Assembly: GCA_048885525.1 (NCBI GenBank)
Contig: JBHLLP010000003.1
Span: forward strand, 32,001 to 96,000
Origin: Candidatus Hermodarchaeota archaeon
GTDB lineage: Archaea; Asgardarchaeota; Lokiarchaeia; Sigyniarchaeales; SOKP01
Length of the DNA: 64,000 nt
Direction: 5' to 3'
Under the pieces are notes generated by a model. It had not been told where the DNA came from. It was given only the letters and a program-made list of their open reading frames with translations, and searched no databases. Below, piece after piece: positions 2 through 5,287 of this stretch. A program made the position numbers and the translations under genes. How positions within the stretch are numbered: position 1 is the stretch's first letter; each line of letters begins with the position of its first letter.

Positions 2-280
2 ATCATTAATCCAGCTTTCACACCAGTTACAGCTGATTTTAAAGCTGCACATTTTGATGCTCGGAGATCTATTTACAGTTATTGTTTCTTTGCGAATATT
101 GCTGAATACGGTGAATCTCATATATATACCCCAGAAAAGGATCGTACTGAAAGATTTTTACCCGCAAAAGAAGAAGGCTTAATTTATAAAGATATAGATC
201 TATTTAAATTACGCTCAGAGCGTAAAAAATGGGAAAAAGAACAAAACAAAGAGAGAATGTTTATACAAAGTACTAGATAG
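2..280 (+). CDS. 3' end of a carbon-nitrogen hydrolase (nitrilase superfamily)-like protein; partial, not in the ORF track
   Basis: Frame 2 is open from the window edge to TAG at 278-280: IINPAFTPVTADFKAAHFDARRSIYSYCFFANIAEYGESHIYTP...EEGLIYKDIDLFKLRSER, matching the typical CN-hydrolase C-terminus (N..G.S.I..P, E.GLI..DIDL..LR..R). Confidence 0.6.
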   Translation: MINPAFTPVTADFKAAHFDARRSIYSYCFFANIAEYGESHIYTPEKDRTERFLPAKEEGLIYKDIDLFKLRSERKKWEKEQNKERMFIQSTR

Positions 281-312: not shown

Positions 313-2292
313 TTAACCTATTTCTACATCCATTTTTTTACGTTCTTCAAGTAAAGCATCCACAACAGAAGGATCAGCTAATGTTGTAACATTTCCAATA
401 TCACTACCAGTGGCAATTGCTTTCAAAATTCTCCTCATTATTTTACCACTTCGAGTTTTAGGTAAGTCATCAGCAAATTGAATAACATCTGGTTGAAAAA
501 CAGGTCCAATTTCTGTTCTCACGTGCATTCTAATTTCATTGGATAATTTAGCTGATTTTTGAACTCCCTGAATTAAAGTCACAAAAGCCCATATTGCTTG
601 ACCTTTGATTTTATGAGGAAAAGGAGCAACTGCAGCTTCTGCAACACTTGGATGGCTTACAAGAGCAGATTCTACTTCCATAGTACCTATTCTATGTCCA
701 GATACTTTAATAACGTCATCTAATCGTCCTAAAATCCAATAATAACCATCTTCATCTCTTCGTGCTCCATCACCAGTGTAGTAATATCCTGGATATCTAT
801 CAAGATAAGTTGATTTAAATCTGTCAGTATCGCCCCATACATCTCTTAACATTCCTGGCCAAGGCGTTTGAATTGCAAAATAACCCCCTTCATTTGGTTC
901 TGTAATTTTATCTCCTTCTAAATCAAATATAACTGGTTTAATTCCAAAGAATGGCATACAGCAAGAGCCTGGTTTAGTGGGTGTTGCTGTAGCAATAGGT
1001 GTCATAATAAAACCACCAGTTTCCGTTTGCCAATATGTATCTACAATTGGGCAACGCTCTTTACCTACTACTCGATGATACCAAGTCCAAGCTTCTGGAT
1101 TTATTGGTTCTCCAACAGTTCCAAGTACTTTTAATGAACTTAGGTCGTGTCTTTTAACTGGTTCATCACCATACCTCATTAAAGCACGTATTGCAGTCGG
1201 TGCTGTATAGAAATGAGTTACTTTATGACGTTCAACAATATCCCAAAAACGATCAACATCAGGATACGTTGGAACTCCTTCAAACATTAAAGACGTTGCT
1301 CCATTTACAAGAGGTCCATATACTATATAAGAATGCCCTGTTATCCATCCAATATCAGCAGTGCAATACCAGATATCTCCCTCATGGTAATTAAATACAA
1401 CCTTATGAGTATATGATGTATAAAGTATGTATCCTGCTGTGGTATGTTTTACGCCCTTTGGCTTTCCAGTTGTTCCACTTGTATATAAAATAAATAATGT
1501 ATCTTCAGAATCCATAATTTCAGGTTCACATTCTTCGTTCATACCATCAATAAAGTCATGATACCAAATATCCTTGTCAGTATGAGGCACTTGTCTTCCT
1601 GAACGCTTTACAACAATAACATGTTCGATGGTAGGAACTTGATCGATAATTTGAACGACATCTTCTATTTTTGGATAATATTTTCCCGCTCTTAATGTTT
1701 CATCGCTTGTAAATAAAAGACGAGAATTAGAATCTTCAATCCTATCTTTAACAGCTTCTTTTGAAAATCCCCCAAAAACTATTGAATGGATAACACCTAT
1801 TCGAGCACAGGCTAGCATAATTATAGCAAGTTCAGGAACCATAGGGAGCCAAATTGTGACTCTATCTCCCTTTTTCAATCCAAGCTTTTTCATTCCATTC
1901 GCAACTTTACTGACTTCTTTCAAAAGTTCATTATAAGTAAATTCTCGCATATTTCCGGGTTCATCTGCTTCCCAAATCAAGGCAATTTGTTCTCCTTTTC
2001 CTGCTTTTACATGTCTATCTAATGCGTTATAACTAACATTTAGTTTTCCACCAACGAACCATTTACCGGGAAACAACTCTGTTTTTTCCCAGACTTTATC
2101 ATAAGGTTTGAACCAATCAATGGATTTTGCTTGTTCATCCCAGAAACCTTCTATATCTTCTATAGATTGTTTATATAGTTTTTGGTATTCTTCCAGAGAC
2201 ATTCCTGTTTTTGCAAATTCAGGATTTAGATCAACGGGATTAAATCTACGTGTTTCAGTGAGAATACTTTCCATTCTTTCTTCTTTTGACAT
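313..2292 (-). CDS. acs: AMP-forming acetyl-CoA synthetase
   Basis: YTSGTTGKPKG AMP-binding loop, TADIGWITGHSY, DTYWQTETGG, and C-terminal LPKTRSGKIMRR containing the acetylatable catalytic Lys. Confidence 0.97.
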   Translation of the reverse strand: MSKEERMESILTETRRFNPVDLNPEFAKTGMSLEEYQKLYKQSIEDIEGFWDEQAKSIDWFKPYDKVWEKTELFPGKWFVGGKLNVSYNALDRHVKAGKGEQIALIWEADEPGNMREFTYNELLKEVSKVANGMKKLGLKKGDRVTIWLPMVPELAIIMLACARIGVIHSIVFGGFSKEAVKDRIEDSNSRLLFTSDETLRAGKYYPKIEDVVQIIDQVPTIEHVIVVKRSGRQVPHTDKDIWYHDFIDGMNEECEPEIMDSEDTLFILYTSGTTGKPKGVKHTTAGYILYTSYTHKVVFNYHEGDIWYCTADIGWITGHSYIVYGPLVNGATSLMFEGVPTYPDVDRFWDIVERHKVTHFYTAPTAIRALMRYGDEPVKRHDLSSLKVLGTVGEPINPEAWTWYHRVVGKERCPIVDTYWQTETGGFIMTPIATATPTKPGSCCMPFFGIKPVIFDLEGDKITEPNEGGYFAIQTPWPGMLRDVWGDTDRFKSTYLDRYPGYYYTGDGARRDEDGYYWILGRLDDVIKVSGHRIGTMEVESALVSHPSVAEAAVAPFPHKIKGQAIWAFVTLIQGVQKSAKLSNEIRMHVRTEIGPVFQPDVIQFADDLPKTRSGKIMRRILKAIATGSDIGNVTTLADPSVVDALLEERKKMDVEIG

Positions 2293-2538
2293 TACATTTC
2301 ACGATTTTAAATTTTTCTTATATTTTAGAATTTCATAAATTTATGTTTTTAATTTTATTAATTATAGACATCTAAAATTATTATTTAATAGGCGATAGTC
2401 TTAATTCAAAAAAGCGATATATAAAATTTAAACATTTTATTTATAATTTCAAAAACATTATATTGATGATAAAACATTTAATAAAGAGATTAGAGATTAT
2501 ATTTTTATTTTAAATATTTAATTTAAACCAAAAAAATA

Positions 2539-4443
2539 GTGAAATATGTTATCATGACAGAAGATTGGAGAGTAAAGTGGAAAGACAAAGAAATTACAGC
2601 AGAAGAAGCAATTAATCAAATTATTCCCGGGAATAGAGTTTTTATTGATTCTGGATGTTCAGAACCACAGTTATTAACTGCAGAATTGATTAAACAATCA
2701 GAGAAATTAATTGATACTGAAATACTTCACTTTTTAACTATAGGCCCAGAGAAGTACTTTGAAGATAAAGCAGAAGATTTATTTAGGCATAATGCATTCT
2801 TTATTGGCAAAACTCTTAGAGAAGAAATTAATAAAGGTCAAGCAGACTACACCCCTATTTTTACAAGTGAAATTCCATCTTTATTTAAAACAGGTAGAAA
2901 ACATATCGATGTTGCACTTATACAAACTACTCCTCCTGATCCTTACGGTTTTTGCTCTTTAGGGATAAATGTGGACATTGCAAAACCAATAGCACAAACA
3001 GCTTATATAACTATTGCAGAAATTAACCCACAAATGCCTCGGACTTTAGGAAATAGTTTTATACATATGAAAGAAATTGATTTTTTTATTTATAATAACA
3101 CACCTTTATTAGAATTTATTTTCGACGAACCTGATGATATTGCAGAAAGTATTGGTCAAAATCTAGTAAATTTAATAGAAAATAAATCTACCATTCATGT
3201 TGGTTTTGGTGATTTACCTAATGCTGTATTAAAATTTCTTAAGGATAAAAAAGATCTAGGGATGCATTCTCATTATATAACAGACAATATAATACCCCTT
3301 ATTGAAGAAGGTGTTTTAACTTGTAGAAAAAAGAATTTTCATCCAGAGAAAATACTTACTAGTTTTGCTTTAGGAACTAATAAATTATATAATTTCGTCA
3401 ACAACAATCCATATATAGAATTCTATCCATCGGATTATATTTGTAATCCTAAATACATTGGAATGAATAAGAAATTAGTTTCCATTAATTCTGCTCGCCA
3501 AATTGATTTAACTGGACAAGTAAATGCTGCAACTGAAGGTTATAGTTTTTATTCAGGATTAGGAGAAACTATAGATTTTATGAGAGGAGCTGCGTTTTCT
3601 AAAGGTGGAAAGCCGATAATAATAATGCCTTCAACCTCAAGAGATGGAGAAAAATCCCGAATTGTAGCTCATTTAGATGAAGGTGCAGGAATAATGTTGT
3701 CTCGTGGAGATGTTCATTATGTTGTGACTGAATGGGGTGTTGCATACCTGCATGGTAAAACAATTCGTGAAAGAGTGCTTGAGTTGATATGTATAGCTCA
3801 CCCAAAATTTCGACAATCATTATTAGATGAAGCTAAAAAATTGAATTATATATTTTCTGATCAGATGCTTCCTTGTGATGAAGAGGGTCGAATTTGTTTA
3901 TACCCTTCTGAATATGAAACAATTTTCATAACGAGAGATAAAGAAAAAGTTAATATTCGCCCGGTTAAAACAACGGATGAACAAGCACTTAAAGAATTAT
4001 ATTATTCATTGAATGAGAGAGATAGATATTTACGATTTTTTGAGCTTAGAAAAGAATTTACACATTCAAAAACTCAAAGCGAAGTAAATATTGATTATAT
4101 TAATGTTTTTTCACTAGGAGCATTTATAGGGGAAATTGGAAAGGAAGAAATGATAGGGAGTGCAACATATTATTTAAATCCTCAAATGAATATGGCAGAA
4201 TATAGCTTTATCGTTAGGGAAGATTATCGAGGAAAAGGTATTGGTACATTTTTATATCAACATATAATTATTATCGCCAAGGAGAAAGGCATAAAGGGAT
4301 TCTATGGAAATATTCATATTCAAAATAAAGAAACGATTCGTGTTATTCATAAAGGAGGATATACCAAAATAACTCCACCAGAAATCGGAGAAAAAGAATT
4401 GTTTTACAGAGTGTATTTTGATAAAGAAGATTCAATTAGTTGA
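2539..4443 (+). CDS. Acetyl-CoA hydrolase/CoA-transferase-fold domain fused to a C-terminal GNAT acetyltransferase (likely start ATG 2554)
   Basis: N-terminal ~440 aa has PPD.YG.CSLG..VD, AEIN.QMPRT.G, ID.TGQV, SG.G...DF.RGA..S.GG.PII and V.YVVTE.G.A.L.G. C-terminal IRP..., RYLRFF and YRGKGIGT (GNAT motif A). Confidence 0.9.
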   Translation: MKYVIMTEDWRVKWKDKEITAEEAINQIIPGNRVFIDSGCSEPQLLTAELIKQSEKLIDTEILHFLTIGPEKYFEDKAEDLFRHNAFFIGKTLREEINKGQADYTPIFTSEIPSLFKTGRKHIDVALIQTTPPDPYGFCSLGINVDIAKPIAQTAYITIAEINPQMPRTLGNSFIHMKEIDFFIYNNTPLLEFIFDEPDDIAESIGQNLVNLIENKSTIHVGFGDLPNAVLKFLKDKKDLGMHSHYITDNIIPLIEEGVLTCRKKNFHPEKILTSFALGTNKLYNFVNNNPYIEFYPSDYICNPKYIGMNKKLVSINSARQIDLTGQVNAATEGYSFYSGLGETIDFMRGAAFSKGGKPIIIMPSTSRDGEKSRIVAHLDEGAGIMLSRGDVHYVVTEWGVAYLHGKTIRERVLELICIAHPKFRQSLLDEAKKLNYIFSDQMLPCDEEGRICLYPSEYETIFITRDKEKVNIRPVKTTDEQALKELYYSLNERDRYLRFFELRKEFTHSKTQSEVNIDYINVFSLGAFIGEIGKEEMIGSATYYLNPQMNMAEYSFIVREDYRGKGIGTFLYQHIIIIAKEKGIKGFYGNIHIQNKETIRVIHKGGYTKITPPEIGEKELFYRVYFDKEDSIS

Positions 4444-4492
4444 TTTATCAAAATTTTTATTTTTCTTCTTTAATTATCAATCTAGTTATTTT

Positions 4493-5287
4493 ATGAGATT
4501 TAAATTTACTGATTATCATTTACACACAAAAGGTTGGAGCGTAGATGTACCAGAAGACGGTCCTACTTTTAAAGATTATATAAAAATAGCAGAAGAGCAT
4601 CAAATTAATATCTGTTTTCTTGACCATTTTGAACTCCATTATGTGGAGAATGACAAGACTAATCCATTTTATAATGGAAAAGTAAATGATTATCTTGAAG
4701 AAATTGATATATATAAAGAATCATATGATTTCATACTCAGTGGTTTAGAGATTGAGTATTATGAGAATAAGGAGATTCAATTAATTGAATTTATGGATGA
4801 TTATGAAAGAGAATTTGATTTTATCGGAGGATCTGTTCATGAGTGGATAATCGGATATCCAATTACAACAAAAGAAGGACTATCTAAACTATTAGAAAAA
4901 ATACCGATGAAAAAGATTATAGATGATTATTTTAAAGTAAGTATAAAAATGATTAATTCCCAAATTTTCAAGAATATCTGTCATATCGACACTATTTTTC
5001 GTTATATTAATAATAATGAATTCATACCTACTGATGATTGTGATGTATCTGATAATCGAGTACTAGACTTAGGTCGTCTATGTATAAAAAACAAAATAAA
5101 AGTAGAATTGAATTTATCTGGTTTAAGATTTCCAATAAATAGAACCTTTCCATCTATGGAGATTATGGAAATATTGAAGAAAGAAGGAATAAAGTTTTTT
5201 GTTGGGTCTGATTCACATTCTTTAGATTATTTTAAAGAAAACATCCCTAAAGTAATAGATGCCTATAAGATATTAAATTCACTTTAA
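4493..5287 (+). CDS. PHP-family phosphoesterase (histidinol-phosphatase-like); start moved from 4418 to ATG 4493
   Basis: DYHLHT, LDH, GLE, GSVH, HID, ELN and GSDSH are the PHP metal-ligand motifs. Confidence 0.85.
   Translation: MRFKFTDYHLHTKGWSVDVPEDGPTFKDYIKIAEEHQINICFLDHFELHYVENDKTNPFYNGKVNDYLEEIDIYKESYDFILSGLEIEYYENKEIQLIEFMDDYEREFDFIGGSVHEWIIGYPITTKEGLSKLLEKIPMKKIIDDYFKVSIKMINSQIFKNICHIDTIFRYINNNEFIPTDDCDVSDNRVLDLGRLCIKNKIKVELNLSGLRFPINRTFPSMEIMEILKKEGIKFFVGSDSHSLDYFKENIPKVIDAYKILNSL

Follow-up and report, generated by a model that had tools for sequence, protein, structure and literature searches.

The first 4.4 kb of the 64,000-nucleotide stretch of Loki-type Asgard archaeal DNA analysed here (contig JBHLLP010000003.1, positions 32,001 to 96,000; hereafter the window) consist of two divergent genes: acs, which encodes an AMP-forming acetyl-CoA synthetase, and a gene encoding a domain with the coenzyme A (CoA)-transferase fold joined to a GNAT acetyltransferase domain. 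Control of metabolism by lysine acetylation has its textbook example in the reversible acetylation of Acs, and our best reading of the pair is that it constitutes a variant of the Pat/Acs acetylation switch. We think it probable, though well short of assured, that the fusion protein is a Pat-like acetyltransferase that controls Acs via Lys617, and that it is gated by a CoA-transferase-derived module which binds a CoA compound but does not transfer it. The evidence comes from the fusion of the two domains, from the replacement and subsequent fixation of residues at the ancestral catalytic centre, and from the kinship of the GNAT domain; the positions of all features are given in Table 1.

A CoA-transferase fold joined to a GNAT domain

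Residues of the fusion protein are numbered from the GTG codon at 2539; the likelier start is the ATG at 2554 (629 amino acids), upstream of which relatives carry a GGTGA-like box. Pfam places AcetylCoA_hydro at residues 23-187, AcetylCoA_hyd_C at 279-432 and GNAT at 509-605, and both lobes of the CoA-transferase fold are recognised (PF02550 and PF13336, with 106 and 196 bits). The AlphaFold2 model of the fusion (predicted local distance difference test score, pLDDT, 91.5; predicted template-modelling score, pTM, 0.88) matches the structures 3gk7 and 2oas in Foldseek, with template-modelling (TM) scores of 0.93-0.95 and root-mean-square deviations of 1.5-2.3 Å, and a phmmer comparison with solved structures returned four 4-hydroxybutyrate CoA-transferases (E-values 1e-115 to 1e-97, identity 32-40%). 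Neither Pfam nor Foldseek found in the fusion the NDP-forming acyl-CoA-synthetase-like regulatory domain that characterises type I and type II acetyltransferases; the architecture is type III-like, with a presumed regulatory domain of ~440 amino acids at the N-terminus and the GNAT at the C-terminus. Orthologs of the fusion are on average 82% identical to one another in the N-terminal domain and 79% in the GNAT, and the names given to the protein in databases are limited to ‘GNAT family N-acetyltransferase’ or ‘acyl-CoA hydrolase/GNAT’.

The catalytic centre of the N-terminal domain has been exchanged

When aligned to the four solved 4-hydroxybutyrate CoA-transferases, His245 of the fusion falls on the glutamate of the HTE motif, and Glu343-Thr344 align with GGQ at its second Gly and its Gln. 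A first-pass annotation of this DNA had suggested both the loss of the catalytic Glu to His and the alteration of GGQ, from the motifs KDLGMHSHY (residues 238-246; nucleotides 3250-3276) and SGLGETIDF (residues 339-347), and both are borne out in an alignment of 68 loci, in which position 245 is His in 67 and Tyr in one and position 343 is Glu or Asp in 68/68; since they are kept across these loci, the changes are not the product of chance or sequencing noise. The other motifs that it quoted, RYLRFF and YRGKGIGT in the GNAT domain and PKTRSGK in Acs, also lie where it had placed them.

The extent of the change was measured by comparing 66 full-length acs-linked sequences (the clade set) with 74 relatives that keep Glu and GGQ, where a position was counted as family-conserved if it was at least 85% conserved in those 74 (n = 72). 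Just five of the 72 positions are changed in the acs-linked clade, each of them to a residue that is itself conserved, while 67/72 are kept. The five comprise position 220, the catalytic position 245, position 302 and the adjacent positions 343 and 344; within the clade set, position 343 is Glu in 44/66 and Asp in 22/66, and position 344, ancestrally Gln, is Thr in 63/66. Four of them (220, 245, 302 and 343) could be translated into the numbering of AarC by using E. coli ScpC as a bridge. In AarC, Glu294 is the nucleophile, Asn347 contributes the internal oxyanion hole and buttresses Glu294, and the amide of Gly388 forms the external oxyanion hole (GxGG), which is described as strictly conserved superfamily-wide (PMC4876117). 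Glu294 is flanked by the side chain of Asn347 on one side and the amide of Gly388 on the other, and Gln267 CG, Glu294 CG and Gly388 CA each lie ~4 Å from a bound ligand atom (PMC4876117).

The fusion therefore lacks the features that define a class I CoA-transferase, namely the catalytic Glu, the external oxyanion-hole Gly and the internal oxyanion-hole carboxamide. As far as can be judged from the alignments, the exchange took in the entire catalytic centre and left nearly everything else as it was; with substitutions at the nucleophile and at both oxyanion-hole residues, canonical CoA transfer by this domain is very unlikely. Conversely, since the fold and nearly all of the family-conserved positions are kept, the domain probably still binds a CoA compound. 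The first-pass annotation had described the domain as dead; this was right in that the catalytic residues are lost, but too simple, because five residues have been exchanged for a conserved set against a background of 67 conserved positions. We therefore call the centre rebuilt, rather than dead or decayed, on the strength of the conservation of the new His/His/Cys/carboxylate set.

Phylogeny and distribution of the fusion

A scan of species-representative genomes yielded 80 loci, made up of 68 orthologs (70-93% identity) and 12 more distant fusions (48-54% identity); the latter come from Asgard genomes, which often also carry an ortholog, and from bacteria, and 12/12 retain the ancestral Q-E-N-G-Q residues. 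The same residues are kept by a paralog in the host genome (C1:54488-56311, 52% identity), which is not beside acs and whose neighbours are uninformative. A FastTree phylogeny of the N-terminal domain recovers the acs-linked clade as monophyletic, with support of 0.98; its sister is a single representative, P0123 (H-F-S-D-S), that is not beside acs, and both are nested within fusions that possess Glu and GGQ, the paralog among them. By this tree, the acs-linked clade has a single origin. Across 301 genomes sampled from the phylum, matches of at least 69% identity are confined to the window's own family, in which ~57 of the 69 sampled genomes carry one (a hand count), and matches in other families reach just 44-53% identity.

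Among the 150 best representatives of 50%-identity clusters, 84 are fusions, of which 48 have Glu at the catalytic position, 16 have Asp and the rest have another residue, with GGQ in 23; among the 66 standalone enzymes, Glu is present in 50 and GGQ in 53. These figures suggest that degeneration of the site is recurrent once a GNAT has been joined to a CoA-transferase domain. Position 343 is acidic in 9/36 relatives without Glu245 and in 0/108 relatives with it, which requires at least five changes on the tree, and sets comparable to that of the acs-linked clade are seen in other lineages (H-A-C-D in P0219 and H-D-H-E in P0263). Both associations, that of fusion with loss and that of Glu245 loss with an acidic 343, are raw counts accompanied by minimal numbers of changes, as an independent-pairs test had just six usable pairs and no power.

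Two further observations were made in this wider family. One clade of standalone CoA-transferase homologues, with no GNAT, has Gly in place of the catalytic Glu (H-S-G), with GGQ kept in most (members P0217, P0226, P0228, P0235, P0236, P0239, P0245, P0247, P0251 and P0259). In addition, a metagenomic contig (L100) carries an ATP-grasp_5 gene (63-938) immediately before a canonical Glu/GGQ fusion (941-2824); NDP-forming acetyl-CoA synthetases and the regulatory region of Pat also include an ATP-grasp_5 domain.

The GNAT domain resembles Pat and is predicted to accommodate Lys617 of Acs

The closest solved relatives of residues 445-634 are the GNAT domain of S. lividans PatA (4nxy, 3e-16), E. 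coli PatZ (5e-12), Sulfolobus Pat (4e-8) and mycobacterial Pat, so that all the best solved relatives are protein lysine acetyltransferases, as the first-pass annotation had anticipated in calling the GNAT Pat-type. Glu554 aligns with PatA E123 and PatZ E809, which have been named as catalytic (PMC12184503), and Glu554, Arg499 and Arg564 are invariant across the 66 orthologs of the clade set. The host genome encodes two Pat-type GNATs only, the fusion and its paralog.

Acs, the presumed target, scores 988 bits against NF001208 (cut-off 657) and 959 bits, also above the cut-off, against TIGR02188, and it is the single true acs product found in the 99%-complete host genome, where the next-best of ~15 other AMP-forming ligase loci is merely 31% identical. 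Its Lys617 is invariant across 22 aligned orthologs, and this residue is the counterpart of Lys609 of S. enterica Acs, the residue acetylated by Pat.

A predicted complex of the GNAT domain (445-634) with the C-terminal domain of Acs (520-659) reached an interface score (ipSAE) of 0.83, a level attained by 58/80 solved complexes and 2/110 mismatched pairs, while the best of three controls scored 0.00. Contacts agreed to at least 93% between runs, with partner pLDDT values of at least 88. In the model, Lys617 is located in the GNAT cleft, contacting residues 499-501, 556 and 591, and Acs residues 613-615 contact Glu554. This supportive model points to a likeness to the Pat-Acs pair and is not proof that this pair binds. 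When 19 clade-specific GNAT residues were compared with the predicted Acs interface, 3 overlapped against ~3 expected (hand count), so that no enrichment was found there.

Taken as a switch, the system would work as follows. The GNAT would acetylate Acs, the product of the adjacent gene, at Lys617, and possibly further AMP-forming ligases as well, whereupon acetate activation would be turned off. A deacetylase of the HDAC or Sir2 type, with its gene at another place in the genome, would undo the modification. The N-terminal domain would serve as a ligand-responsive module that gates the GNAT allosterically upon binding acetyl-CoA, CoA or another acyl-CoA, in the manner of the inactive NDP-forming-synthetase domain of Pat/PatZ.

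Gene order and candidate deacetylases

In line with the ~250 bp given in the first-pass annotation, acs and the fusion are separated by a spacer of 246 bp. Amongst the 57 loci with enough flank to be informative, 52 have acs upstream of the fusion in the opposite orientation, at a distance of less than 500 bp in 37 and of 0.7-2.8 kb in 15. The synteny with acs that the first-pass annotation had proposed to check is thus real, but it is weak evidence for a functional link, since the clade has a single origin and is found in one family, and since unrelated neighbours are equally syntenic.

A gene encoding a class-I-type HDAC lies directly 3' of the fusion in three relatives (L055, L059 and L065), which form one deep subclade (support 1.0). 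The HDAC open reading frame (ORF) starts 134 nucleotides past the fusion stop in L055 and 42 nucleotides past it in L065, and in L059 the HDAC match begins ~60 nucleotides beyond the fusion match. These proteins score 279-293 bits in Pfam, and their best solved relatives are HDAC2, HDAC1 and HDLP. The linkage is a second, independent gene-order event, and is more telling than the adjacency of acs. The search for a sirtuin or HDAC partner that the first-pass annotation had recommended turned up three SIR2 loci and four HDAC-family loci in the host genome. One of the latter, G000:C16:54250-55152, is the ortholog of the linked HDAC (66% identical) and lies on a contig other than that of the fusion; it is the best candidate for the eraser, a role it may play by analogy with its linked relatives.

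Beyond the fusion, the ORF at 4418-5287 (+; likely start 4493; 264-289 amino acids) was considered as a third component and rejected, as it resembles a HisJ-family PHP histidinol-phosphatase and was judged to represent ordinary synteny; it scores 85.7 bits against TIGR01856 (cut-off 90.2), and Pfam gives no match.

Weighing the alternatives

Several findings count against a Pat-like switch acting on Acs. Five of the 57 informative loci lack acs upstream, and the genes downstream of the fusion, which have no evident connection with it, are retained to a comparable degree (a HisJ-like phosphatase in 60/68 loci, PAP2 in 58/68, an Arf-like GTPase in 56/68 and TFB in 49/68), so that the retention of acs may simply reflect relatedness. 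No AMP-forming ligase, Sir2 or HDAC gene was found near the paralog, the sister P0123 or four distant fusions, and for this reason no general link to acs can be claimed for the fusion family. The GNAT scores just 49.5 bits against the curated mycobacterial Pat model NF058543, far from the cut-off of 460, making it a relative of Pat and not an equivalog. Since a similar complex has already been solved (4U5Y, in which S. enterica Acs is paired with the GNAT of S. lividans PatA), the success of the docking may be a matter of recall. Finally, the conservation of the His/His/Cys/acid set argues for something more than a passive binding pocket.

Several of these points also speak for a purely metabolic pairing, in which the fusion protein would handle acyl-CoA enzymatically and its GNAT would acetylate a small molecule or unrelated proteins, with acs nearby through inherited gene order or a shared role in acetate and acyl-CoA metabolism: unrelated neighbours are as syntenic as acs, the clade was found in one family only, no ligase gene neighbours the paralogous and distant fusions, and the Pat equivalog cut-off is not reached. 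We nevertheless judge this improbable, given that the machinery for CoA transfer is gone, that every one of the nearest solved GNAT relatives is a protein lysine acetyltransferase and the fusion keeps the catalytic Glu of Pat, that an HDAC gene has been inserted directly after the fusion in one subclade, and that the docking model, with the reservation just made, places Lys617 in the cleft. Less probable still is that CoA-transferase activity persists, with the catalytic carboxylate having migrated from position 245 to position 343, an option that the first-pass annotation had itself brought up. Although an acidic residue appears at 343 only where Glu245 has been lost, and does so in several lineages, this position corresponds to the external oxyanion-hole Gly that is described as strictly conserved in class I enzymes, the internal oxyanion-hole Asn has also been lost (to Cys302), and the alternation of Asp and Glu at 343 would be unexpected for a precisely placed nucleophile.

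A more serious competitor, if still a rather unlikely one, leaves the GNAT acting on Acs and differs in what it makes of the N-terminal domain, which would house a new active or metal centre and not a passive sensor. One form of this idea is a Cys302-His245-Glu/Asp343 triad, onto whose Cys an acyl group would be passed from acyl-CoA (self-acylation, thioesterase activity or an acyl relay); another is a His/His/Cys/carboxylate metal site, for example one in which Zn ligates the thiol of CoA. What commends it is that at each of the five positions the clade has a single conserved type of residue as the replacement (66/66 for Cys302 and for an acid at 343, 65/66 for His245) and that the AarC counterparts surround one point (PMC4876117). 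By the geometry of AarC, His245 would sit between Cys302 and the carboxylate at 343, hence the triad-like layout, and a metal site is equally conceivable. The association of an acidic 343 with the loss of Glu245 and the similar sets in P0219 and P0263 fit this picture as well. On the other side, the geometry is taken from the AarC literature, position 343 switches freely between Glu and Asp, L055 has Ser in place of His220 and one locus has Tyr in place of His245, the sister P0123 has Asp343 yet combines it with Phe245 and Ser302, and the association itself comes from a comparison in which the independent-pairs test was powerless. In its fullest version, the centre would have been converted into an acylated triad or a metal site that reads the CoA thiol, giving a new acyl-CoA/CoA-responsive or acyl-relaying regulator of acetylation, coupled to Acs and found in one Asgard family; this we regard as unlikely. 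The Pat-like acetyltransferase gated by a CoA-compound-binding module remains the reading that we prefer.

Spacer, flanking genes and an insert in acs of relatives

Within the spacer between acs and the fusion, a 46-nucleotide block (2424-2469) is near-invariant in 11/12 aligned loci while the remainder drifts, and the motif AAACATT(T)WAT is repeated at about 2430, 2453 and 2472. The block may be a shared operator or promoter element. On the other side of acs, nucleotides 2-280 (+) of the window are the end of a gene (G000:C3:29803-32280) for an 825-amino-acid TPR protein with a C-terminal carbon-nitrogen hydrolase domain, which is convergent with acs; farther upstream of it lie genes for the alpha and beta subunits of a 2-oxoacid dehydrogenase E1 and for a 280-amino-acid GNAT.

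The acs genes of some relatives, among them L050 (4379-4444, -), L060 (3490-3555, -) and L067, contain a 30-nucleotide insert that bears an in-frame stop and lies exactly inside the conserved motif YWQ|TETGG, and a stop inside acs is seen in ~12/58 genomes of the family. The insert has conserved ends (AAAATG...ATTGG[CT]TA) and a central hairpin with compensatory changes across genomes. The exon flanks, CUG and CAG, can pair, and a fold drawn by hand has two 3-nucleotide bulges on opposite strands around a 4-bp helix, an arrangement that is bulge-helix-bulge-like. The insert could be a mini-intron that is spliced from an mRNA.

Table 1 Features of the acs/fusion locus (coordinates of the window unless a relative is named; clade counts refer to the 66 acs-linked sequences)
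Feature	Position	Strand	Basis or remark
acs, AMP-forming acetyl-CoA synthetase, 659 amino acids	313-2292	-	NF001208 and TIGR02188 profile matches
Codon of Acs Lys617, in PKTRSGK	442-444	-	Motif position
acs/fusion divergent intergenic region, AT-rich, 246 bp	2293-2538	.	TATA-like boxes near both genes
Fusion gene, 634 amino acids from GTG 2539	2539-4443	+	ORF and Pfam
N-terminal 4-hydroxybutyrate-CoA-transferase-fold domain, residues 8-440	2560-3858	+	Pfam, phmmer, Foldseek
His220, ancestral Gln (AarC Gln267)	3196-3198	+	His in 65/66 clade members; Ser in L055
His245, ancestral catalytic Glu (AarC Glu294, RipA Glu249)	3271-3273	+	His in 65/66, Tyr in 1/66 clade members
Cys302, ancestral internal oxyanion-hole Asn (AarC Asn347)	3442-3444	+	Cys in 66/66 clade members
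Glu343-Thr344, ancestral second Gly (AarC Gly388) and Gln of GGQ	3565-3570	+	Pairwise alignments, clade counts
Pat-type GNAT domain, residues 469-625	3943-4413	+	Pfam, solved relatives
RYLRFF, residues 496-501	4024-4041	+	Pat-type GNAT signature
Catalytic Glu554	4198-4200	+	Alignment to PatA E123 / PatZ E809
Motif A YRGKGIGT, residues 563-570	4225-4248	+	Acetyl-CoA motif A (R/Q-x-x-G-x-G/A) present as R564-G-K-G567-I-G569
HDAC gene in relatives	L055:8013-9209; L065:7911-9110; L059:2486-3655		Downstream of the fusion

Relation to known systems and significance

Reviews and the PatZ structure paper class bacterial acetyltransferases by their regulatory domain, which may be NDP-forming synthetase-like, cAMP, ACT or NADP-binding. 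A CoA-transferase regulatory domain is absent from these published classifications, and a non-exhaustive literature search found no study of a CoA-transferase-GNAT fusion. With the type I/II Pat enzymes (S. enterica Pat, E. coli PatZ/YfiQ and S. lividans PatA, together with CobB) the fusion shares its GNAT subtype and its presumed target, the A10 lysine of Acs. It differs from them in having the CoA-transferase (AcetylCoA_hydro) fold where they have an NDP-forming acyl-CoA synthetase fold, in having a rebuilt centre and not merely one missing residue, in its archaeal host, and in the linkage of its gene to acs. Type III enzymes, such as the mycobacterial cAMP-Pat, the actinobacterial ACT-GNAT and the NADP-binding MxKat, have a different sensor fold and a different ligand from the CoA compound presumed here; the regulatory domain of the fusion, at ~440 amino acids, has a putative ligand, and Acs is a demonstrated substrate of several type III acetyltransferases.

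In gene order, the closest parallel is the acsA/acuABC locus of Bacillus subtilis, which encodes the GNAT AcuA and the class-I-type HDAC AcuC and in which acs is likewise divergent from an operon led by a GNAT gene. As there, L055, L059 and L065 have the putative target, writer and eraser at one locus. AcuA, however, consists of a GNAT domain alone, and one of a different subtype, and the NCBIfam scan of the fusion brought up no AcuA model; moreover, in the window the HDAC is unlinked and there is no AcuB. As for 4-hydroxybutyrate CoA-transferase, AarC and RipA, the fusion has their fold, with the TM scores, identities and 67/72 conserved positions given above, but it has other amino acids in place of their catalytic Glu, of the two oxyanion-hole residues and of the Gln residues nearby, and it carries a GNAT in addition.

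If the proposed switch is correct, it would add a CoA-transferase-fold sensor to the acetylation writers that are classified by their sensor domain, and would provide an archaeal (Asgard) case in which target and writer, and in some relatives the eraser too, are brought together at one locus. The exchange of five residues offers a tractable model for the passage from an active site to a sensor or a new centre, with the paralog in the same genome, which keeps the ancestral residues, available for comparison. More broadly, the same residues have been lost repeatedly across the family of fusions at large (84 of the 150 best representatives), which suggests the existence of a large and unstudied class of regulated acetyltransferases, apparently for the most part bacterial.

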